Assembly: GCA_964471825.1 (NCBI GenBank)
Contig: CAYYKD010000008.1
Location: 5,867-69,866 of the forward strand
DNA: 64,000 nucleotides
From: an uncultured Spirochaetales bacterium
GTDB lineage: Bacteria > Spirochaetota > GWE2-31-10 > CAYYKD01
Reading direction: 5' to 3'
Made by a program: the position numbers and the translations under genes. Shown here piece by piece: positions 2,431 through 60,740 of this stretch (position 1 is its first letter; every line of letters starts with the position of its first letter). The notes under the pieces are model-generated. The model did no database searches and was not told the DNA's origin. It saw only the letters and a list, made by a program, of their open reading frames with translations.

Positions 2431-2438
2431 TATTAATT

Positions 2439-3437
2439 TTAATTTTTTATAAACTCTGATGGATTCTTAACTACTCTTTCAATTGATGCTTGAGTTACGA
2501 AATATACATATGAATTGTAATCAGGTTTAAATACAAAATCATATGATTGATCATCCGAATTATATACATTGATATTTCTTGTATCTCCGTTATTCAATAC
2601 TATTTTTATAAATCCTAGATTTTTTAAACCATCAACTTTTCCATCGTATTTAAAGTTGTCTGCTTTGAATGAAATAATGGATTTAATCTGATTTTCGAGT
2701 GCGAATTCCTTCAACTCTTTTTCGATTGATGGTACTATTTCATATATTTTTTTGCCGGGTTGTGCTGGATCATCTTTTGAAGAGATTGAATAGTCCACAT
2801 TATACTTAGAACTTTTTAATGAATAGCTAATTGTTTTTACAGAATCTAAATCTATTCCTTTAATTATACTTTGATCTGTCCATTTTAAAACATCATTTGG
2901 GGTTTCTACTGCAATTAATGATTTTACTTCTCGGACAGAGTTCACATCACTTTTATTAGTAAACCCATTGTTTATAATAATATACGATGTCCCCTTCGTA
3001 GGTCCAACATTCCCTATTCTTATTTCAATGGTTTTTTTATCCATTGTAAATACAACCACTTTTTGACCGACCAGATCATCAAATCCATATCTTTTTTTTG
3101 ATTCAGGGGTTAGATTGCTTTCGATGACCATCCCTTTTTTTAGAGATTCAATAATCTTAAGATAGCCTTCAACTTTAGATATATTGGCTGGCACCTTTGA
3201 GTCTCTATAATTAACTATCCAACTATCAGCATTCTTCTCTAACTTAAATGATTTCTCTGCATCTACAATTTCCAATGAAATAATATTCTTACTAGTAACA
3301 TTTTTTAACAAAGGTCTATTCATCGAATATAGTTTAATATTCGATGAGGAAAAGATATTTAGTGTTACAAATAATATTACCTGTAGACCGACAAAAATCG
3401 CTAGAAAAATTATTAACTTTTTACTTTCTATTTTCAT
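2439..3437 (-). CDS. DUF4340-like membrane-anchored protein, the partner commonly encoded next to GldG-type ABC auxiliary proteins
   Basis: N-terminal TM helix, 332 aa, lies immediately downstream of the GldA/F/G-like ABC genes. The domain call rests on this gene context and is an inference. Confidence 0.45.
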   Translation of the reverse strand: MKIESKKLIIFLAIFVGLQVILFVTLNIFSSSNIKLYSMNRPLLKNVTSKNIISLEIVDAEKSFKLEKNADSWIVNYRDSKVPANISKVEGYLKIIESLKKGMVIESNLTPESKKRYGFDDLVGQKVVVFTMDKKTIEIRIGNVGPTKGTSYIIINNGFTNKSDVNSVREVKSLIAVETPNDVLKWTDQSIIKGIDLDSVKTISYSLKSSKYNVDYSISSKDDPAQPGKKIYEIVPSIEKELKEFALENQIKSIISFKADNFKYDGKVDGLKNLGFIKIVLNNGDTRNINVYNSDDQSYDFVFKPDYNSYVYFVTQASIERVVKNPSEFIKN

Positions 3438-16967: not shown

Positions 16968-18701
16968 CTAACTTTTCTTCAGTTTTTTTAAAATCTCATT
17001 TCTATTAACAAAGACCTGTTGAAATAAATTTAATATATTCATAACAGTCCAATATAATACAAGACCTGATGATACATTATAAAATATAAAAAAGAAAACA
17101 ATCGGTAACATAAACATCATCATCTTTGTTTGACTATTATTGGTTCCTGAGCTTGGAGTTAACGCACTTGTTAAAAATTGAGTTATAACCATTAATATAG
17201 GTAGTATGTGAAGTGGAATTCCATTCATACCAAACATAGCAAAGGGTATTTCTAAAATTTTATCCGGTGCTGATAGATCTTTAATCCATAAGAAAGAAGA
17301 ACTTTTTAACTCAACCATATTTACTAACAATTCATACATTGCAATAAGCAACGGCATCTGTAATAGTAATGGTAAACATCCGCCTAGCGGATTGATGCCT
17401 GATTTTTTGTAGAATTTCATAGTTTCTTCATTTAATTTTTGCGGGTCATCCTTAAACTTCAACTGTAATTCTTTTAACTTTGGTTGAACATCCATCATTT
17501 TTTTCTGTGAAACCATACTGGAATGTGTAAGCGGTGCGAGTAATAATTTTATTAAAAATGTAATAATAATAATTGCCAATCCGTAATTTTTAACAATACT
17601 ATAGATATAGGAAAGGCCCCATCCAATAACATTACCGATACCAAAAAGAATGCTTCTTTCTAGTTTATTTATCTTAGAATTAATAATTGAATTATCTCCA
17701 AATTTTCTGTTTTTATTGTAATCGCCCAGCACACTACCAACTTTTGGACCCAGATAGATATTAAAACTAGCATTTGCAACTGACTTAGATAACTCTCTCG
17801 TATAGCCTGTATAATATTTATTATTATCCTTCTGTCTATAATCAAAAAAGTATCTATATCTTTGATTGTCTGATAAAATAGCAGTTGCAAAATAATGTCC
17901 ATTATTTACTACCCATCCATCAATATTTTGAGGAATCTTATCATTAAATAAATATTTGTCAGGAAAGGATTTTTTATCATTAAACTTAACATCTACTATT
18001 TTTTTCCCATCGAAATATGAGAGAAAGTTTTTTAGTTTCTTGTCGTTTTTTTCGTTAACAATACCTAGCGTAGGCCCCCATCCAATACTAAATGATGAGT
18101 TGGAATTATCAAACGCCATTACTTCAGACTTAGAGTTACTGATTTCTATATCACATTTAAATACAAACTCATCTTTATAGAAAGTAAAAATCTTTTTAAC
18201 TGTATAGATTGATTCTGTTTCAATATTTTTAAATGTTGAAGTAAAGACAAATTTATTATCATCCCGTTTAAATACGAAATAATCATTTCCATCGGTTAAA
18301 CTATCAAGTGTTATATCACTATCCCAACTTCCTAGTTTTAACAACAAACCACCATCTCCATCTGTTCCATAATTAATATGATGTAATACTGAGCCATCTC
18401 TATTTAAAAATGTGTCTTTAATGAATGCATCTGTTACAACAGCACCCTTTTCAGAAAATATTAACTTGATATTTTTATTTTCATAGGTTAATAATGACTG
18501 ATCATAATATCCTCTCTCAGTTAGAGAAGTAAATTTTGATGTTTTTTTTACCTGATTGTTGTTTACTAAATTAGGAATATCAGGTTGAATTTGAGTTTGT
18601 TCAGGTTTGATTGCAGCATTTTGAGGTTGCCAAAAAATCCAATAGGCAGTAAATAATAATGCCATAATAACCATAAAGTAAAATGATTTGTTTGTGTCCA
18701 T
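16968..18701 (-). CDS. yidC: Membrane protein insertase YidC (long, diderm-type with a periplasmic domain)
   Basis: 577 aa. Conserved C-terminal 5-TM core; follows yidD, rnpA and rpmH. Confidence 0.85.
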   Translation of the reverse strand: MDTNKSFYFMVIMALLFTAYWIFWQPQNAAIKPEQTQIQPDIPNLVNNNQVKKTSKFTSLTERGYYDQSLLTYENKNIKLIFSEKGAVVTDAFIKDTFLNRDGSVLHHINYGTDGDGGLLLKLGSWDSDITLDSLTDGNDYFVFKRDDNKFVFTSTFKNIETESIYTVKKIFTFYKDEFVFKCDIEISNSKSEVMAFDNSNSSFSIGWGPTLGIVNEKNDKKLKNFLSYFDGKKIVDVKFNDKKSFPDKYLFNDKIPQNIDGWVVNNGHYFATAILSDNQRYRYFFDYRQKDNNKYYTGYTRELSKSVANASFNIYLGPKVGSVLGDYNKNRKFGDNSIINSKINKLERSILFGIGNVIGWGLSYIYSIVKNYGLAIIIITFLIKLLLAPLTHSSMVSQKKMMDVQPKLKELQLKFKDDPQKLNEETMKFYKKSGINPLGGCLPLLLQMPLLIAMYELLVNMVELKSSSFLWIKDLSAPDKILEIPFAMFGMNGIPLHILPILMVITQFLTSALTPSSGTNNSQTKMMMFMLPIVFFFIFYNVSSGLVLYWTVMNILNLFQQVFVNRNEILKKLKKS

Positions 18702-18715
18702 AAAATCTCCATTGT

Positions 18716-18934
18716 TTATTTAAGTGGGTCAAATCCACCCGCATTCCATGGATTGCAGCGAATTATTCGATAAATTGATAAAAAAATTGCTTTAATGAAA
18801 TTATACTTTTGAAATGCCTGTTTGGAGTAATCCGAACAACTCGGATAAAACCTACATGACGGCGGGAATAAAGGAGATAAAAATTTCTGATATATTAGTA
18901 TTAACTGTATAAATAATTTATTTATTATCTTCAT
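18716..18934 (-). CDS. yidD: Membrane protein insertion efficiency factor YidD
   Basis: Conserved FYPSCSDY...CNPW motif; 72 aa. Confidence 0.8.
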   Translation of the reverse strand: MKIINKLFIQLILIYQKFLSPLFPPSCRFYPSCSDYSKQAFQKYNFIKAIFLSIYRIIRCNPWNAGGFDPLK

Positions 18935-19264
18935 TATACTTATTTATTAAAAAAAGAAATTCGGAATTCAAGGATTCAAATTTTATAGAGTTTTTTTTAA
19001 CTATCACAACAATATCTACATGAAATAATAATTGTGACCTGATAGATCTAAAAAATTCTCTTAATATTCGTTTTTGATAATTTCGTTGTACTGAATTTCC
19101 TGAAACTCGTTTGCTTACAATTATTCCAAATCTGGAATAATCTAATGAGTTTTTAAAAAAACCTATAATATAAAATTTACCCTTTAATACAGTACCTTCA
19201 TTTAGTACTTTATTGAATTCCGTTTTTTTTTTAGCCGTTCACATTGTTTAAAAGTATAATCCAT
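18918..19264 (-). CDS. rnpA: Ribonuclease P protein component RnpA, split by a 1-nt frameshift in a T10/A10 homopolymer (sequencing error, slippage-dependent gene, or pseudogene)
   Basis: ATG at 19264 lies 6 nt after the rpmH stop. Frame 1 gives MDYTFKQCERLKKKRNSIKY* and the adjacent frame continues KKKTEFNKVLNEGTVLKGKFYIIGFF...GIIVSKRVSGNSVQRNYQKRILREFFR (RnpA-like) to the stop at 18918. The frame switch falls inside T10 at 19223..19232, and 347 nt is not a multiple of 3. Confidence 0.7.
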
Positions 19265-19270
19265 TGATAA

Positions 19271-19411
19271 TTAGCCCTTAACGGCTAATTTTTTTCTACC
19301 TACCAGTCTTCTTCTTTTTAAAACAAGTCTTCCACCTTTAGTTTTCATCCTTGCTCTAAAACCACATTTATTAATTCTTCTGGTCTTTGACGGTTGATAA
19401 GTCATCTTCAT
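19271..19411 (-). CDS. rpmH: 50S ribosomal protein L34
   Basis: Manual translation gives [46 protein letters not shown] (46 aa). It is below the ORF-track length cutoff. Confidence 0.85.
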
Positions 19412-19637
19412 AAAAAAACTCCTATATATACATAAAAAAACATTTAATTTAAAATAAAATCTTCAAAATTGAGAGTTGCGAATATATCATTTTTTATATA
19501 TATGTGTCAAGTATAATTTAGTATTGAAAATCTTGATAATCACTGAATATCAAAATAATCAACCTTTAAGCAGATATTAGAGATACTGTAGTATCAATTG
19601 TCTTTAAAGAATAATTAATATTTCGCAATAAATAACT

Positions 19638-19934
19638 TTAATCAATGTCAAATGACCCGAATTTAAATTTAATATCTATAATATCAGATAGTTGAGAAAA
19701 GGCAATAATTTTTTTTAGTAATTCGGATTTAAATTGATTTAAAGTTGTTACCCAGCCGGGATGATTACACAATATAATTAAAACATTTTTATCAATTTTT
19801 TCAGGTTTTGTAACTTGATATATTTTTTCACCGGCAATTTCTTTCCATTTTGTTTGAATTTTTTTTAATTTAAAATCTACAAAAAGATTATTTTTTTTTA
19901 AAATTTCATCAAGTATATTTTTTAAATCCTCCAT
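19638..19934 (-). CDS. dciA: DUF721/DciA-like protein (candidate replicative-helicase operator)
   Basis: 98 aa directly downstream of recF in the dnaA-dnaN-recF operon, with a W-EIAGE...HP..WV..L-type pattern. The assignment rests on context plus weak motif evidence. Confidence 0.5.
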   Translation of the reverse strand: MEDLKNILDEILKKNNLFVDFKLKKIQTKWKEIAGEKIYQVTKPEKIDKNVLIILCNHPGWVTTLNQFKSELLKKIIAFSQLSDIIDIKFKFGSFDID

Positions 19935-19974: not shown

Positions 19975-21051
19975 TTATAGATTTATTACATTAATATTTT
20001 CTTTGTTTTTAATAAATTTTATAAATCTATTATCTGTAAAAGTTGCAAATACCTGTTCATTATTAAAAATTTCATTAAAAATATGTTCCTGCCTAAATAG
20101 ATCTAATTCTAAAATTACATCATCTACCAGTAAAATTGGACTCTGATTAAATACTTCACTAAATATATTTTTTTGTATTAATTTAATAATCAATGAGGCT
20201 AATCTGCATTGTCCGAGTGAACCATATTTGTTAAATTGTGCACCATTTAACATAAAAAGATAATTATCCCTATGAATTCCAAAACACATATGGCCGATTT
20301 TAATAGATTCGCTTCGTTTTGATAAATAATAATTATAATAATTCTCTGCAGTAAAGTTAGAGTTATTGTTTTTTGATATATTTGGTAAATAGAGAACTTT
20401 AGTATCAAGATTAAAATTACCGATATTCTTAAAATAATCTGTAAATAAAGATGAAAATTTATCAATAAAGATATGCCGCTTAGTTGATATGTATTCAGAT
20501 TTTGATGCCATTTGAAAATCATATACATCAAGCATTTTAATGTCTGATGAATTTTTTAAAAGAGAATTTTTTTTTCTGAGTAGATTATTATAGTCGCGTA
20601 AATTGGCAAGGTATACACTATCTATCAGGCATAATATTAAATCAAAATATTCTCTTTTATATGTAGGTTGACCTAAAATTATGTTTAAATCCTGTGGTGA
20701 GAATAAAACTGTTAATAATTCACCAAGTATTGCAGAGTACTTTGAAACCTTTTTATTATTAATAAAAACTTCTTTTTTGGTTTTATATTTAATAGAGATA
20801 TCTTTAGATATACTATTTTTTTCAAACGATAAATTTATATAAAAACTATCTGTTTGATTTTTTATTAACTCATTATCTTTATATGATCGAAATGACCGTA
20901 AATACGAACTATAATATATTGATTCCAATAAATTTGATTTACCTGTACCATTTTGACCAATTATAAAATTGTAGGGTTTGAGTTTAGTAAATTCCAAATG
21001 ATAATTACTGTAATTTCTAAAATCATTTAAGAATAATTTAGATATTATCAA
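19975..21051 (-). CDS. recF: DNA replication and repair protein RecF
   Basis: Walker A GQNGTGKSNLLESI. Conserved position after dnaN. Confidence 0.85.
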   Translation of the reverse strand: MIISKLFLNDFRNYSNYHLEFTKLKPYNFIIGQNGTGKSNLLESIYYSSYLRSFRSYKDNELIKNQTDSFYINLSFEKNSISKDISIKYKTKKEVFINNKKVSKYSAILGELLTVLFSPQDLNIILGQPTYKREYFDLILCLIDSVYLANLRDYNNLLRKKNSLLKNSSDIKMLDVYDFQMASKSEYISTKRHIFIDKFSSLFTDYFKNIGNFNLDTKVLYLPNISKNNNSNFTAENYYNYYLSKRSESIKIGHMCFGIHRDNYLFMLNGAQFNKYGSLGQCRLASLIIKLIQKNIFSEVFNQSPILLVDDVILELDLFRQEHIFNEIFNNEQVFATFTDNRFIKFIKNKENINVINL

Positions 21052-21060
21052 AATATTAAA

Positions 21061-22182
21061 CTATGATTTACTCATTGGCATCATAATATAGATATAATCA
21101 TTGTTATCTTGTTCTTTAACTGTAATAGTACTATTTGAATCTTTAAATTCAAAGATAGTATATTCTGTTTTGATAACGGATAGGACATCTAAAATAAAAG
21201 TATAATTCAATGCTACTTCAAAGTCGTCACCGCTATATTCTACTTCAATAACTTCTTTTCCGGAACCATGAGAAATATCTTCTGTGCTTATTTTTATATA
21301 ATTACCTGATAAACTAAAAAGAATTTTATGTGATTCTTTATCACCCATAAGTGCAATTCTATTTAATACTTTTTGCATTAAAGATGTTTTTATTTTAAAT
21401 GTTCCGGTTTGATCTGTTGGTATTACTTTTTTGTACGGTGGAAAATCTCCATCTAATAGATTAGAAATAAAGTAATAATTGTCAATTTTAATGTGAATGT
21501 TTTTTTCTGAGAATCCTATTTTCACATCTCCATTGTTTTTTGACAATTTAAGTACTTCTTGTAATATTTTTGGAGGTACAATAATTCCATTTTCTAATGA
21601 ATTTTTTATATCAAACTCTTTTTCAATAAATGATAATCTCTTACCATCAGTAGAAACCATTCTTATAAAATTATCAATTGTTTCAAAATATAATCCGCTG
21701 ATAAATCTACGGTTTTCAGTTAGTGATACAGAAATTATTGTTTTCTTTATCATATTAGAAAAAACATCTTGCGGTACAGAAATAAATTCTATGTCATTCG
21801 GTTGATCTATTCTAGATAATTTTTCAGGATCAATTGTTTTTAAAATATATTGACTATTTTTATTATCCTTAGGATTTATTAATAATTGACCATTTTGATT
21901 TGATTCTATTGATATTTCATTACAATCAAAACTTTTTACTATGGAATAAAATTTATTACAAAATACAGATGTTTCCCCTTCTTCAATTTGTTCTATTTGA
22001 CATTCTCCAAGAAAATTAATTTTTGTTTCAAATGCAGATAATTTCATTGTATTATTTGATACCTGGATTAATACATTAGAGTTAAAGGATATACTGTTTT
22101 TTGCAGAAATAATACTATCAGCTATACTTAGCATTTCGATTAAAGTTTGTTTCATACATATAAATTTCATTTTTTTCTCCAT
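21061..22182 (-). CDS. dnaN: DNA polymerase III beta sliding clamp DnaN
   Basis: 373 aa. Position between dnaA and recF, and three-domain clamp architecture. Confidence 0.85.
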   Translation of the reverse strand: MEKKMKFICMKQTLIEMLSIADSIISAKNSISFNSNVLIQVSNNTMKLSAFETKINFLGECQIEQIEEGETSVFCNKFYSIVKSFDCNEISIESNQNGQLLINPKDNKNSQYILKTIDPEKLSRIDQPNDIEFISVPQDVFSNMIKKTIISVSLTENRRFISGLYFETIDNFIRMVSTDGKRLSFIEKEFDIKNSLENGIIVPPKILQEVLKLSKNNGDVKIGFSEKNIHIKIDNYYFISNLLDGDFPPYKKVIPTDQTGTFKIKTSLMQKVLNRIALMGDKESHKILFSLSGNYIKISTEDISHGSGKEVIEVEYSGDDFEVALNYTFILDVLSVIKTEYTIFEFKDSNSTITVKEQDNNDYIYIMMPMSKS

Positions 22183-22491: not shown

Positions 22492-23910
22492 TTATTGCAA
22501 TTTTTTTAAAATTAATTCGATATCTTTTTTCGTTTCTTGAACAGTATCTATCATATCACCTATTTTTTTGGTTGCATGCATAACTGTTCCGTGTTCTTTG
22601 CCTCCAAAATATGCACCTATTTGTGTTGTTGATAATCTTGTTTCTTTTCTGCTAAGATACATTGCGATTTGTCTGGCCATTACAATTGACTTTGTTCTTT
22701 TTGTTCCTGTGAGATCATGAGATTTTAAATTATAATATTCGGCTACTCTTGTAATAATTGTATCAACTGATATTGGTGAATTATGTGCTTCATTAATTTT
22801 ATCTTTAAGTTTATCTTTGACAATAGCTAATGTAATTGGTTTTTTCATTATACTATAGTATGCCCGTACTATTCTAAATGATGATTTTAAATCCCTTATG
22901 CTTCCTGATATATTTGTAGCAATATATTCAAGAGCCTCATTGTCAATTTTAATTTCAAAGGAATCTTTTTCATTTTTTAGAATTGCCATTCTAAGTTCAA
23001 AATCCGGCGGTATCAGATCAACATTTAACCCCATACCAAACCGTTGTCTTACTCTTTCTTCTAAATTTGACACCTGTTTAATTGGTTGATCACAGGAAAA
23101 AACCATCTGTTTAAAGTCGTGATAGAGTTGATTAAATGTATGAAAAATTTCTTCCTGCATCATACTCTTGTTTTCAAAAAATTGAATATCATCAAGGAGT
23201 AAAACATCAACTCGTCTATACTTCATTCTAAATTGAGGCATTTGTTTTTTATTAAGATGTTCGTAAAAATCATTTCCAAACTCTTCGGAGGTTGTGTACT
23301 TAACAATTTTATCTGGATATGTTTCTTTAATATATTTTTCAATAGATCTAAGCAGGTGAGTTTTTCCTAATCCGCTACCTCCGTAGATAAAATATGGGTT
23401 GTATTCTAGTCCGGGTTTTTGGGCGACAATTCTTGCTGATTTAGCTGCAAACTCATTTGAGTTTCCTATTACAAAAGAATCAAAAGAATAATCCTCAGTA
23501 GAATCACTTTGATCTGTGCCTTCTCTAAGAATTTGAAGTGAATTGATGGAGTTGGATCCTGTGGATTCCGTGTCAGATAATTTATTTTCTAAAAAAGAAA
23601 TATCATCTGATATCTGTTTTTCTTTAATTAAACTTTCTACTTCAACGATATCTTCGTATTTTTTTGTAATAAATGATATAGAACACTTATAGCCAAATAA
23701 TCCCGATAGACATTGTTCAATTTCAGGTGCTAGTTTAAGTATATTATCCTTAATGAAATTTGAAGCTACAGACAAGGTCATAATTTTCAGATCTTCATCA
23801 TAGGTTTCAAATTTAATTCTTTTGATCCACAGATTAATATCGTTTGTAGATATAAGCCCATCAAGGTTTTTAACAGTTTCATTCCAAAAAACCGAGTAAT
23901 CTGATCCCAT
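22492..23910 (-). CDS. dnaA: Chromosomal replication initiator DnaA
   Basis: AAA+ Walker A GGSGLGKTHLL. The C-terminal DnaA-box-binding domain is present. Confidence 0.95.
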   Translation of the reverse strand: MGSDYSVFWNETVKNLDGLISTNDINLWIKRIKFETYDEDLKIMTLSVASNFIKDNILKLAPEIEQCLSGLFGYKCSISFITKKYEDIVEVESLIKEKQISDDISFLENKLSDTESTGSNSINSLQILREGTDQSDSTEDYSFDSFVIGNSNEFAAKSARIVAQKPGLEYNPYFIYGGSGLGKTHLLRSIEKYIKETYPDKIVKYTTSEEFGNDFYEHLNKKQMPQFRMKYRRVDVLLLDDIQFFENKSMMQEEIFHTFNQLYHDFKQMVFSCDQPIKQVSNLEERVRQRFGMGLNVDLIPPDFELRMAILKNEKDSFEIKIDNEALEYIATNISGSIRDLKSSFRIVRAYYSIMKKPITLAIVKDKLKDKINEAHNSPISVDTIITRVAEYYNLKSHDLTGTKRTKSIVMARQIAMYLSRKETRLSTTQIGAYFGGKEHGTVMHATKKIGDMIDTVQETKKDIELILKKLQ

Positions 23911-24452
23911 TTATCCCTCATTTTTGACAAGTTATTAACATTTGAATTCATATGCGTTCTAAAAAAGAATGATAAATTCTAAATTCAAAACAATAAACAT
24001 CTAGTTGAAAATCAACAAGTTAAGAAAATGTCAATAGTAATAAATATTATAAAAACAATTTGTTTATAACTTATTAACAACATATTGACAAAGTTATTTA
24101 ACATGACGATTGATATTCTTTATAAATTTAAAAGTAAAAAAAATCAATCTTTAAAAAACTTAAAAATTGAATATATATTTGTTTATTGATTTTCAACAAG
24201 TTATAATGAAAATATTTACCGGTTATTAACAGGAAAAAATATCACTATTTATTAGAAAATAGAAATTTTTCTGAATTTGATTAAATTCAAGGGAATTTGA
24301 CAAATTTATTTAAATTCAATTGTTACTCAAACCATAATGTAAAATTAATGCTAAGGCGATTGTAAAAAAGGATACAATATTTTTGAAGAGCATCTTTACT
24401 AAAAAGGATAATTATTATATACATCGTTAAAGACAAAATAACGGAGGTTGGT
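23911..24452. promoter_or_regulatory. AT-rich dnaA-upstream / icd-upstream intergenic region; candidate oriC with degenerate DnaA boxes and repeated ACAAGTTA motifs
   Basis: A 542-nt non-coding region with multiple TTATTAACA variants. The 17-mers TTGAAAATCAACAAGTT (~24004) and TTGATTTTCAACAAGTT (~24188) are repeated. Confidence 0.45.
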
Positions 24453-42030: not shown

Positions 42031-42077
42031 GAGGCAGTTGCAAAAAAAAAATTTTGAATTTTTGCAAGAGTCTCATC
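42031..42077. repeat. Palindromic intergenic repeat, family B copy 2 (reverse orientation)
   Basis: Reverse complement GATGAGACTCTTGCAAAAATTCAAAATTTTTTTTTTGCAACTGCCTC. Lies 41 nt upstream of the NarL-type regulator start. Confidence 0.65.
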
Positions 42078-42117: not shown

Positions 42118-42762
42118 ATGAAGAAAAAAATTTTTATTGTTGACGATCACGAGATAGTTAGACTCGGACTAATGCAGATTATTAACAAACGAGAAAATCT
42201 GATAGTCTGCGGTGAGGCTGATAATACCTTAGATGCACTAAAGCGGATTGAGGAACAAAACCCCGATCTGGCAATTGTTGACATCTCATTAAAAGACTCT
42301 AATGGGCTTGAACTTATTAAAGATATAAGGGTTAGGTTTCCCAAACTACCTACACTTGTACTATCAATCTATGATGAATCAATTTATGCAGAGAGAGCGT
42401 TGCGTGCAGGTGCATCGGGCTACATCATGAAACAGGAGTTGACAGATAGTGTAATTCTTGCTATTCAGACAATTCTTTCAGGTAGGAAATATCTCAGTTC
42501 TGATATGTCGATCAGGATGGCAGAACTATATATTGAAAATAAAGGCGACAAGGAAAAAAATCCCGTAAGTGTGCTTTCAGATAGGGAATTAGAGGTTTTC
42601 GAAATGTTTGGAAGAGGTTTGACTACAAAGGAGATCTCTGAAAAATTAAACCTAAGCATAAAAACTATTGGTAACTATCGAGAAAATATCAAGAAGAAAC
42701 TCAACCTTTCAAATACAAATGAGATTGTAAGATTTGCAGCTCAATCCGGTCTACTAAAATAG
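42118..42762 (+). CDS. NarL/FixJ-family response regulator (REC + LuxR-type HTH)
   Basis: Receiver motifs plus a C-terminal GerE/LuxR HTH (LTTKEISEKLNLSIKTIGNYRENIKKKL). Confidence 0.85.
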   Translation: MKKKIFIVDDHEIVRLGLMQIINKRENLIVCGEADNTLDALKRIEEQNPDLAIVDISLKDSNGLELIKDIRVRFPKLPTLVLSIYDESIYAERALRAGASGYIMKQELTDSVILAIQTILSGRKYLSSDMSIRMAELYIENKGDKEKNPVSVLSDRELEVFEMFGRGLTTKEISEKLNLSIKTIGNYRENIKKKLNLSNTNEIVRFAAQSGLLK

Positions 42763-58525: not shown

Positions 58526-58990
58526 ATGTCTGATATTTATATGGAACTACATGAAGCTATTGCTGAGAACTCTTTAAACAAGTGTTTAAGTGATTATTTT
58601 ACAAAGAGACGGATTGACAGAACTAAAATTTCTTCAGAAAAAAAGAAAGAATCTTTTGAAGAAGAATTTGGTATGATACACCATGCAACAACAAGTACCT
58701 ATACTTATAATAATATTTTTGAAAACATTGCAGATGTTAAGAAAGATATTAAGAGTTTAAATGATGTTAGCTATGGAAATGTGATAGCATTTTTAAAAGA
58801 TAGCTTTCAAGATGAGGGTATGTATAAATCAAACTATGTTGCATATAGATCATCCGGCAAATCTGTTAAAGAATCTTATGAAGATGCATTGAAGAATTTT
58901 ACTTCTCTTGTTGCTAACCTTAATGATGGAATTATGAATGGAAATTTTGCAGCATTGAGTACTTTTATTGAGAAATTCAGATTTAAATAG
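58526..58990 (+). CDS. Hypothetical protein
   Basis: 154-aa ORF with an AT-rich promoter-like upstream region. No motifs recognised. Confidence 0.35.
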   Translation: MSDIYMELHEAIAENSLNKCLSDYFTKRRIDRTKISSEKKKESFEEEFGMIHHATTSTYTYNNIFENIADVKKDIKSLNDVSYGNVIAFLKDSFQDEGMYKSNYVAYRSSGKSVKESYEDALKNFTSLVANLNDGIMNGNFAALSTFIEKFRFK

Positions 58991-59188
58991 TTATACGACA
59001 TAAACTAAACATTAACTAAAATGTAGATGATGGTGACCTAAAGGATATTATCAAGAGTATATCAATATAACATTTTAGAAACCTATTTGCGGATATAGGA
59101 TATGGATTTAAGATGCCAGAATATTGTATTGTTTTCGATAACTATGTGAGTAGTGCCGTTCGAAGGAGCGGCATTATTATTTATAGAA

Positions 59189-59431
59189 TTACCCTATAAA
59201 TTGAATTACTATCTGAAACTCATCTTGAAGGATTATAAAGTTTTCGATAACAATGTTAAATTTTATTATTGCTTCTTCCATAATTTCCATAAACAGGGAT
59301 TGCGTTTCCTCTGAGCAGAGTTGTTTTGCTGTTTCCGGTACAAGGCTTGATTTTACAAAATATGTTCCACCTTCTATTTTTTCGCGGTTTTTTCTCATGG
59401 TCTCTCCTCGTTTTATTTTGAAGTTTGTCAC
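59189..59431 (-). CDS. Small hypothetical protein; weak resemblance to the N-terminal half of IS200-like (Y1 HuH) transposases, with the HuH histidines replaced
   Basis: GGTYFV... and ...KFNIVIENFIILQDEFQIVIQ loosely parallel YHIVF ... ILE..MPDHVHLL of IS200 TnpA. 80 aa, truncated. Confidence 0.2.
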   Translation of the reverse strand: MTNFKIKRGETMRKNREKIEGGTYFVKSSLVPETAKQLCSEETQSLFMEIMEEAIIKFNIVIENFIILQDEFQIVIQFIG

Positions 59432-59870
59432 TTTTTAATCATCCAGAGTTAATTAAGCAATATGCTATTTGTTTAAAAATGTTAAAAATAATTAAATACA
59501 AATTACTAAAATCAATTATTACGGATTATTACGGATTTTTTATTTGCAAAAAAAAAAAAAATCAGATACAATATTAAAATATTAATTTGTTATTAAAGAA
59601 GAGGCTCTTAGAAAAATCATTATTTTTGCCGGATTAGGAACAGATGGGTCGAGTATATGACCAAGTACAATGCTGTTAGGTGAGTACATTTGACAAAAAA
59701 GAATGTTCTGCTATCGAACACATCAAGTATGACACTTGTTTTTGATACTATAAAAAATAACGATGAGATTTCGATTTAACGAAATTTAGCAGGGTCCTCT
59801 ATAATCTGTAGTTTTTATGCAGATGTTAATAAGAGATTTATATAAATAAACAAGATTAGGGAGTATTTAA

Positions 59871-60740
59871 ATGAAATTAGACTCAGTAAAAAATAAAAAC
59901 TTTGTGATAACAGGTGGCGGAACTGGATTAGGTAAAGAAATGGCAAAAATCCTTCTTGAAAATAAAGCTAATGTAGCAATTATCGGTAGAAGACTTGAGC
60001 CACTAACAAAATTTGCTTCAGAGTTTGAATCACAAAAGAAAAAGGGTGGAAAACTATTTACTATTCAAGGTGACATTTCAACTAAAGAGGGGTGTGAAAA
60101 AGTTTTACAGAAAATTAAGACAACACTCGGAAACTATGAGATATTAATTAACAATGCCGGAGTGTTCTTCTCCGGTAAGTTTGAGGACACAGAGTTCTCT
60201 GATATTGATAAAATGCTTGATACAAACTTGAAAGGGTTGATCTATTTTACTAAACTCTCACTTCCTAATATAAGAGCCGCAAAAAAACCAGCGATCATAA
60301 ATATATCATCTATTGCCGGTAAAGTCGGCATGCCTTTTATGACTATCTATTCTACTACGAAGTTTGCTGTAGCTGGCTTTACTGAAGCCCTTAGACGAGA
60401 GCTTGTAGATCAGGTTAAAGTAATTGGAGTCTATCCCTCAGGAATCTCTACAGGTTTCATGGGCGAAGCACAATCAAAATTACAAAAGAGTAAATTTAAA
60501 TTTGATAAACCAGATAATGTAGCTTTAAGAATAATTGAAGGATTTGTTAAAGGTGAGGATGAAATTATCATAGGAGATCATTCAAAAAGTACTGTTTTTT
60601 GGAATACAGCAAATAAAAAAACGGTTGATAATTCATTCAGAAAAATGAAGACAAAGATTATGAGTGCCGTCAATGGAGCTAGTTCTGAAAAAGAAAAGAT
60701 TTTTCCGGTAGACAAGAAAGTTTTTAAGTCGAACAAATAA
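59871..60740 (+). CDS. Short-chain dehydrogenase/reductase (SDR) family oxidoreductase
   Basis: TGGGTGLGKEMA Rossmann motif and the catalytic YSTTK. Confidence 0.8.
   Translation: MKLDSVKNKNFVITGGGTGLGKEMAKILLENKANVAIIGRRLEPLTKFASEFESQKKKGGKLFTIQGDISTKEGCEKVLQKIKTTLGNYEILINNAGVFFSGKFEDTEFSDIDKMLDTNLKGLIYFTKLSLPNIRAAKKPAIINISSIAGKVGMPFMTIYSTTKFAVAGFTEALRRELVDQVKVIGVYPSGISTGFMGEAQSKLQKSKFKFDKPDNVALRIIEGFVKGEDEIIIGDHSKSTVFWNTANKKTVDNSFRKMKTKIMSAVNGASSEKEKIFPVDKKVFKSNK

Follow-up and report, generated by a model that had tools for sequence, protein, structure and literature searches.

Poly(A)-tract frameshifts rescued by transcriptional slippage have reportedly been described in Buchnera aphidicola and Blochmannia by Tamas et al. 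in 2008 (PNAS) and by Wernegreen et al. in 2010 (Molecular Biology and Evolution), and transcriptional slippage in the dnaX gene of Thermus thermophilus is said to have been described by Larsen et al. in 2000. In passages of two sources (PMC5009743; PMC3017870), the frameshifts of Buchnera and Blochmannia are given as conserved between species and as corrected in 12-50% of transcripts. Ribosomes are known to slide on poly(A) tracks that encode lysine, and translation is attenuated there (Koutmou et al. 2015, PMC4363877; Arthur et al. 2015, PMC4552401), and rnpA was reported to be pseudogenised in Blattabacterium BBge and BPam, AT-rich cockroach endosymbionts with homopolymer frameshifts (PMC3296467). 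Here we describe a one-nucleotide frameshift at a run of ten adenines (A10) in rnpA, the gene of the RNase P protein subunit, on a 64,000-nucleotide stretch of DNA (the window) from the contig CAYYKD010000008.1 of an uncultured Spirochaetales bacterium. The gene of this subunit is essential and universal in bacteria. Apart from the Blattabacterium pseudogenes (PMC3296467), no described frameshift of rnpA or of the RNase P protein was found in the literature. Coordinates are positions of the whole window unless a contig is named, and the locus is read on the minus strand; its features are collected in Table 1.

The rnpA ATG lies 6 nucleotides (nt) past the rpmH stop, and translation from it (zero frame) reads MDYTFKQCERLKKKRNSIKY and ends after 20 codons. 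The -1 frame carries the conserved body of RnpA (..KKKTEFNKVLNEGTVLKGKFYIIGFF..GIIVSKRVSGNSVQRNYQKRILREFFRS..) and ends at a stop inside yidD. The switch between the two frames falls on a coding-strand run of exactly ten A (19232..19223, ten T on the plus strand); the distance from ATG to stop is 347 nt, or 3n+2, and the insertion of one A gives a single open reading frame (ORF) of 115 amino acids (aa), whose junction reads ...CERLKKKTEFNKVLNE... These frames, the overlap of the second stop with yidD and the effect of one extra A had been proposed in an initial annotation made from the letters of the window, and all were borne out when the frames were re-read. No ATG, GTG or TTG was found in the body frame upstream of 19007, which corresponds to codon 86 of the repaired protein. 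The chance probability of an open frame of 104 codons at the local base composition is about 1e-5. The run in rnpA is the only A/T run of at least ten nucleotides in a coding sequence of the window, the two others (42042-42051 and 59548-59561) being intergenic.

The product repaired with an eleventh A (A11) matched PF00825 with 88.6 bits (cut-off 22.3) over profile positions 1-108 of 109, and TIGR00188 with 70.5 bits (cut-off 38.35). About 7,000 RnpA relatives were found among 1.84 billion representative proteins, and for most of them the alignment begins at query residues 1-5. When 30 relatives were aligned, the zero-frame piece ..TFKQCERLKKK falls on the N-terminal motif of the family, F.K.ERIKK..DF, so that the frame junction sits inside a conserved RnpA motif. 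The same piece aligns without gaps with residues 5-14 of the Thermotoga maritima RnpA (3Q1Q_A), and the A11 product aligns with it gaplessly across the junction (ERLKKKTEF versus ERLRLRRDF); it is therefore the addition of one A, and not the loss of two, which gives the spacing of the family. The residues R45, R61, N62, R66 and D84, which are invariant in the family, and K65, R69, E70 and R73, which are nearly so, are all present. An AlphaFold (AF2) model of the repaired protein had a predicted local distance difference test score (pLDDT) of 93.8 and a predicted template-modelling score (pTM) of 0.85, and Foldseek comparisons with 3Q1Q_A, 1A6F and 4JG4 gave template-modelling scores of 0.80-0.82 with root-mean-square deviations of 1.6-1.9 A. 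By its sequence and its predicted fold, the repaired product is a full-length RnpA. An Rfam gathering scan of the window found no rnpB and gave one tRNA only.

We then compared the length of the run between assemblies. The run was A10 in all four copies of the species, namely the window, the JGI source contig (L002), a MEGAHIT contig of ENA (L003) and a second ENA contig (L001), which differs from the window by one single-nucleotide polymorphism (SNP) in 1342 nt. The species of locus L009, represented by a metagenome-assembled genome (MAG) of GTDB and two Logan assemblies with 22 SNPs and no indels over 4.7 kb, had A10 in all three copies, at another site of the gene, and the sister species (sp2) had A9 in all three copies (L004, L005 and L006). 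Long homopolymers are classic sites of indel errors and several of the matching contigs are identical, possibly because they come from the same reads, which would favor an error of sequencing or assembly at a gene that is truly A11 and intact. Against such an error, contigs separated by SNPs carry the same run length, the JGI, MEGAHIT k141, SPAdes NODE and Logan assemblies agree, and an intergenic A14 is reported in the same window (59548-59561), so that runs longer than ten were not collapsed by the assembler. Nor was a 115-aa (A11) version of RnpA found among 5.8 billion database proteins, where the closest relative of the repaired protein is the same locus only. The five overlapping pairs of neighbouring ORFs that were checked with Pfam in the window were distinct genes, and rnpA is the only split gene seen there. 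The rnpA break is real and is not an assembly error, an explanation which we consider extremely improbable.

The same comparison bears on phase variation, in which the DNA would flip between A10 and A11 and the population would keep enough in-frame cells. Tracts of A10-A11 are hypermutable in replication, and homopolymer contingency loci are common in bacteria. Nevertheless, no polymorphism of run length was found between assemblies in the four copies of the window species, the three of sp2 or the three of the L009 species; most cells would be "off" for an essential gene, because the consensus is A10 in every assembly of the species, and the run is equally fixed within each related lineage. 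The out-of-frame state is also stable through speciation, and contingency loci are typically surface or restriction-modification genes, a class to which rnpA does not belong. Phase variation is accordingly very improbable.

A reading without any frameshift was considered as well. If TGA were translated as tryptophan (genetic code 4), translation could start at the ATG at 19246 and give MWTAKKKTEF..., and a public gene caller made exactly this product, of 108 aa, from contig L001 (P0001). The codon counts contradict it: 42 ORFs of at least 200 aa (16,644 codons) contain 94 TGG and no in-frame TGA, and three of these 42 ORFs end in TGA. The solution is moreover unavailable in the seven other shifted lineages described below, where a TAA or TAG closes the body frame on its upstream side, and it would drop the conserved F.K.ERL motif encoded by the zero frame. 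An internal canonical start is equally rejected, none being present before codon 86; in sp2, the first one is a GTG which removes 35 residues. We regard a non-standard code or a non-canonical internal start as scarcely credible.

The rpmH-yidC intervals of 13 further lineages of uncultured Spirochaetota were fetched by means of an alignment-based search for YidC in genome contigs. The YidC proteins of these relatives are 40-64% identical to that of the window and their loci have a GC content of 23-31%. A search of metagenome contigs added one relevant locus (L086), identical to L011. The comparison with relatives that the initial annotation had proposed showed the same need for a -1 shift, that is, for one extra A, at an A9-A10 run in seven lineages beside the window species (8 of 14). 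The shift is located at three different sites of rnpA: ER[IL]KKK in six lineages, IVVKKK/IGNSV in one and FKKK/NRIK in one (Table 1). The gene is in frame in the six other lineages, with a run of A10 in L007, of A9 in L170 and with interrupted runs in L008, L010, L173 and L174. An uninterrupted run of at least nine A was thus found in 8/8 shifted lineages versus 2/6 in-frame lineages. A neighbor-joining tree of YidC placed the window species and sp2 together with a bootstrap of 100% (2/2 shifted), and L011, L171, L172 and L169 together with a bootstrap of 100% (4/4 shifted). This tree rests on a single protein and its deep rooted-node bootstraps are unreliable because of the rooting; only the 100% clades were used.

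In Spirochaetes bacterium GWB1_27_13 (L011 2430-2460; L086 1430-1460), both frames located 5' of the A10 are lysine-rich and resemble the N-terminus of RnpA (MQNYKLLKKEKLKKK and AFKKREIKKK), so that the junction is easily misplaced; only the frame with a GTG start has a start codon. Read from this GTG, the locus is an ordinary A10 case at the ER[IL]KKK site.

The synonymous divergence (dS) of yidC was 1.0-2.1 within the two shifted clades, which means that synonymous sites are saturated. The body of rnpA had a ratio of nonsynonymous to synonymous divergence (dN/dS) of about 0.36-0.43 in these clades and remained open over about 101 codons with no further lesion, which showed, at the level of sequence, a downstream frame under purifying selection. 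The comparison likewise showed a broken state that has been inherited through speciation under this selection, which excludes both a recent pseudogene and an error.

Decay of rnpA, whose function would then be dispensable or supplied by another gene, has a precedent in the two Blattabacterium genomes where rnpA is annotated as pseudogenized (PMC3296467), and the genome was inspected over 64 kb, so that a second RNase P protein may lie outside. A dead gene had been called unlikely in the initial annotation, and the results agree: the -1 frame is open over about 101 codons in each of the eight lineages, with a chance of about 1e-5 per lineage; all the family-invariant residues are kept; dN/dS is about 0.4 despite the saturation of synonymous sites; and the shift, being common to whole clades, is old and yet accompanied by no second lesion. 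The sole close relative of the repaired protein in the databases, moreover, is the same locus. We find a pseudogene very improbable. The annotation had left a choice between an error and slippage; the reproduced A10 removed the first, and the inherited break together with purifying selection supported the second.

A census of about 130 kb, made up of the window and the sequences flanking the related loci, showed that about 25 A9/T9 runs and two A10 runs in other genes are all in frame, and that every out-of-frame run is in rnpA; such a count of genes disrupted at A/T runs had also been proposed initially. This confinement of the defect to one gene in eight lineages, with neighbouring runs in frame, is a further point against sequencing error. 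In-frame A10 runs were observed in relatives at L007 1912-1921 (rnpA), at L007 6108-6117 (radA, directly after the start codon: ATG AAA AAA AAA ACA) and at L173 3993-4002, in a gene of 240 aa that follows jag. Mixed products would be expected from these three genes too, if slippage is efficient.

The usage of A runs was examined on the sense strand of 49 intact genes of the window, with an expectation from synonymous shuffling. Runs of at least nine A were observed 4 times versus 7.9 expected and runs of at least ten A were not observed versus 2.4 expected; both deficits are borderline (p of about 0.05-0.06), and the deficit starts only at length 9, since A7 runs were in excess (88 versus 65 expected) and A8 runs were as expected (26 versus 24.6). 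A clearer signal came from the KKK tripeptides, none of which was written AAAAAAAAA (0/13 versus 4.8 expected, p of about 0.0025). The usage suggests that long A runs are costly in ordinary genes across the genome, with a threshold near 9, while the run of rnpA is kept.

We then weighed how the frame could be restored. Folding of the 68-nt segments downstream of the run in nine lineages showed that they fold no better than shuffled sequences (z of -1.3 to +1.2); no hairpin was common to the nine segments and no structure was found at a shared spacing. No element resembling a Shine-Dalgarno (SD) sequence that could act as a stimulator was found in the 60 nt upstream of the run. The classic stimulators of -1 programmed ribosomal frameshifting were rejected on these grounds. 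The three shift sites have nothing in common but the run, which is at least nine A at every site. Bacterial RNA polymerase, with a 9-10 bp hybrid, slips efficiently from a run length of 9 and mostly adds one or more A in diminishing proportion (PMC5009743), and this tendency to add A fits the uniform genotype, which is one A short. Ribosomes of Escherichia coli, in contrast, slide weakly at A9/A10 and need at least A11 for robust sliding (PMC4363877). Polymerase slippage is favored over the ribosome because stimulators are lacking, because the runs are of at least nine A, because of the thresholds of sliding in E. coli, and because A7/A8 runs are not avoided. We infer that slippage restores the frame and that the polymerase does most of it. 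That RnpA is made by slippage of one or the other, and that the gene is neither dead nor mis-assembled, we hold to be almost certain.

In the reading to which we give moderate confidence, somewhat above an even balance, the frameshift is real, fixed and maintained, and RnpA is made by slippage of RNA polymerase, which adds one A, with ribosomal -1 slippage possibly helping. The rnpA DNA is one A short of an open frame, and full-length RnpA would come from the fraction of events that slip on A10. Most likely, RNA polymerase would realign on the T10 template and add one A, and standard translation of the resulting A11 mRNA would give ...ERLKKKTEFNKV..., of 115 aa, while unslipped transcripts would give only the 20-aa peptide. 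Some further full-length protein may come from -1 slippage of the ribosome on A_AAA_AAA. After fixation, selection would have to keep the run intact, which matches the runs seen kept in the shifted lineages. The lysine-rich motifs of RnpA (ERIKKK, VSKK), which would become long A runs in an AT-rich genome, may explain why this gene is concerned.

The yield of such a mechanism may be low without harm. The level of RnpA in E. coli is far below that of the ribosomal protein L34, and the genes of L34 and RnpA are here separated by only 6 nt and apparently served by a single strong promoter (19510..19481). As RnpA would be needed far below the co-transcribed L34, a low slip-dependent yield could be tolerable or useful; at perhaps 10-50%, as quoted for endosymbionts, it may do no harm or may be of use.

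The main rival mechanism, which may also contribute beside the polymerase, leaves the mRNA at A10. Ribosomes would reach the body frame either by a -1 shift on A_AAA_AAA (in the sister species, on A_AAA_AAG) or by sliding along the poly(A), in a programmed or tolerated manner. The slippery heptamer is in phase in all eight shifted lineages, the zero frame of sp2 has the exact dnaX-type A_AAA_AAG, all the shifts are in the -1 direction, which is usual for slippage of tandem tRNA-Lys, and sliding on iterated AAA codons is known (PMC4363877). The absence of a downstream hairpin or pseudoknot and of an upstream SD-like stimulator, and the weak sliding of the E. coli ribosome below A11, go against it. 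Runs of A7/A8, which are already slippery for ribosomes, are not depleted in the genes of the window, and the run counts at least 9 A in every shifted lineage, although 7 A would suffice for a ribosome. The ribosome as the main agent thus appears unlikely, though well worth keeping in mind.

Several points weigh against polymerase slippage at a maintained break. Some of the assemblies treated as independent are identical (L002, L003 and the window; L004, L005 and L006; L011 and L086) and may share reads, and six relatives manage with an in-frame rnpA, so that function does not depend on the shift. The YidC tree has no support at its deep nodes, which leaves the number of shift origins uncertain (1 to 4). 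Slippage itself is inferred, not observed, and the choice between polymerase and ribosome leans on the thresholds of E. coli and Thermus rather than on those of this organism. An A10 always includes an in-frame A_AAA_AAA, and sp2 has the classic A_AAA_AAG, so that ribosomal -1 slippage keeps some probability. Finally, the direction of the defect, one A short in 8/8 lineages and in what may be at least four independent events, is explained equally well by an insertion bias of RNA polymerase, by ribosomal slippage in the -1 direction and by a tendency of long runs to contract by mutation.

The locus resembles the cases of Buchnera and Blochmannia by a single-base indel in a run of about ten A of an otherwise intact, sometimes essential gene of an AT-rich genome, by a frameshift that populations and species have kept in common without decaying further, and by the proposed rescue, a mixed mRNA pool produced by slippage of RNA polymerase. 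Three marks of transcriptional slippage were found here: a junction in an A/T run of at least nine, an intact gene under purifying selection, and a shift conserved across species. Unlike in these symbionts, the gene is rnpA, which is absent from the frameshifted Blochmannia genes named in passages of PMC3017870 and from the text of the 2016 review (PMC5009743), where RNase P is nowhere named, and in about 130 kb a single gene is affected, yet at three sites and in at least 2-4 independent events. The host also differs, being an uncultured environmental member of the Spirochaetota with regulatory and transport genes and not an obligate endosymbiont under strong drift. The parallel drawn initially with AT-rich reduced genomes holds for base composition (31.6% GC) and fails for reduction: nothing marks the genome as that of a reduced endosymbiont, because the window carries two-component systems, ATP-binding cassette (ABC) transporters and genes of biotin synthesis.

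With T. thermophilus dnaX (PMC5009743), the locus shares a run of nine or so A/T (nine in dnaX), a housekeeping gene, the addition of A by RNA polymerase in the proposed scheme and the standard translation of an edited mRNA. There, slippage yields a shorter second product, gamma, beside the in-frame tau, whereas the unslipped product of rnpA is a non-conserved 20-aa peptide and the sole functional product would need the slip. The programmed frameshift of E. coli dnaX has in common with rnpA the slippery heptamer (A_AAA_AAG in sp2, A_AAA_AAA here), the -1 direction and tRNA-Lys at both sites, but it depends on an SD-like element upstream and a hairpin downstream, both of which are absent here. 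In the poly(A)-track systems (PMC4363877; PMC4552401), iterated AAA codons lower the output and lose the frame, and (AAA)3 is avoided in ordinary genes, as it is here (0/13 KKK); those tracks lower the output of an in-frame gene and need about A11 or more, whereas the genomic frame is broken here, at A9-A10. Blattabacterium BBge and BPam also have an interrupted rnpA in an AT-rich genome, and the lesion was interpreted there as a loss of function and not as recoding; these "pseudogenes" may be the same slippage-rescued case misread as gene loss.

Gene order (rpmH-rnpA-yidD-yidC) is the same in all the related loci, and yidC served as phylogenetic marker and as anchor for the orthologous loci. 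The predicted promoter upstream of rpmH probably drives an rpmH-rnpA-yidD-yidC transcript, a function assigned by its position and consensus; the related species has an equivalent TTGACA..TATAAT at L004 2210-2240. An inverted repeat spans the rpmH stop and the SD-like motif of rnpA. The repeat was scored as a stem-loop of the plus strand, and its arms also pair in the sense RNA. Its conservation in the sister species is not obvious. One may speculate that it could mask or limit independent initiation at rnpA. Upstream of rpmH-rnpA and on the same strand are dciA/DUF721 (19638-19934), recF (19975-21051), dnaN (21061-22182) and dnaA (22492-23910), and the sign of the GC skew reverses near 24 kb. 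The probable oriC is therefore a 540-bp gap at 23911-24452, which adjoins this cluster and lies close to the reversal. Of the intergenic runs of the window, the A10 at 42042-42051 lies upstream of a gene starting at 42118, and the A14 lies in an 880-bp gene-poor gap (58990-59871) which also holds an 80-aa minus-strand ORF (59189-59431).

Table 1. Features of the rpmH-rnpA-yidD-yidC locus, zero-frame sequence of the run in the shifted lineages, and regions where rnpA is poorly called in public data.
Feature	Source	Coordinates	Strand	Remarks
Predicted sigma-70-like promoter, TTGACA-18-TATATT	window	19481..19510	minus	5' of rpmH; 11/12 consensus positions, TG before -10
rpmH, ribosomal protein L34, 46 aa	window	19271..19411	minus	PF00468 E 7.4e-19; TAA stop
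Inverted repeat, 8 bp, AATTAGCC-GTTAAG-GGCTAATT	window	19269..19290	minus	spans rpmH stop and AAGGG SD-like motif just 5' of rnpA ATG
rnpA ATG	window	19264..19262	minus	6 nt (ttatca) separate rpmH stop from rnpA ATG
rnpA zero-frame segment MDYTFKQCERLKKK, ATG + 13 codons	window	19223..19264	minus	matches N-terminal RnpA motif
A10 putative slip site, T10 on plus strand	window	19223..19232	minus	CTA AAA AAA AAA C; A10 likewise in L001, L002, L003
Zero-frame stop TAA	window	19202..19204	minus	ends 20-aa unslipped product
rnpA body, -1 frame (TEFNKVLNEG...NEDNK + stop), 101 codons	window	18918..19222	minus	RNR motif and every family-invariant residue; stop 18920..18918
yidD, 72 aa	window	18716..18934	minus	PF01809 E 2.2e-28; 17-nt overlap with rnpA 3' end
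yidC, 577 aa	window	16968..18701	minus	phylogenetic marker and anchor
Run, site ER[IL]KKK	window species			CTA AAA AAA AAA CGG
Run, site ER[IL]KKK	sp2 (L004-6, GTDB CAZSQU01)			ATA AAA AAA AAG ACG
Run, site ER[IL]KKK	L169			CTA AAA AAA AAA GAG
Run, site ER[IL]KKK	L171			ATT AAA AAA AAA ATA
Run, site ER[IL]KKK	L172			ATA AAA AAA AAA GTG
Run, site ER[IL]KKK	L011/L086 (GWB1_27_13)			TTA AAA AAA AAA TAG
Run, site IVVKKK/IGNSV (site 2)	L009/L166/L167			GTA AAA AAA AAA TTG
Run, site FKKK/NRIK	L175			TTT AAA AAA AAA ATA
Poorly called rnpA	L001	667-993
Poorly called rnpA	L002-L005	about 2435-3000
Poorly called rnpA	L169	928-1268
Poorly called rnpA	L166	951-1285
Poorly called rnpA	L171	960-1256
Poorly called rnpA	L172	1079-1282
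Poorly called rnpA	L175	1048-1284

Public calls of rnpA in this clade are absent between rpmH and yidD/yidC, split into two fragments or reduced to an N-terminally truncated ORF, and one of them (P0001, MWTAKKK...) uses code 4 with TGA as tryptophan. Some annotations are thus wrong, and PF00825 will be scored as missing or partial in these MAGs.

A further reading, which we offer tentatively and hold to be possible but doubtful, is that obligatory poly(A) slippage is a selected attenuator which holds RnpA at a small fixed fraction of L34, and which would have arisen at least three to four times, at three lysine runs, and been frozen by selection in a family-level clade of environmental low-GC Spirochaetota. 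If this were true, the polymerase or the ribosome of these bacteria would be slippery enough that A runs of at least nine are purged from ordinary genes.

Slippage on the A10 run, with the polymerase as its main agent, would extend a kind of recoding known from Buchnera, Blochmannia and Thermus dnaX to a new gene and a new phylum. With it, rnpA would join the few cellular genes that yield a functional product only through a change of frame. The case would lie outside the obligate endosymbionts, in which genetic drift is the usual explanation of such frameshifts. Breaks at three sites of rnpA only, persisting through speciation while slippery runs seem to be avoided elsewhere, would make this locus useful for asking when slippage-dependent expression is tolerated and when it is selected.

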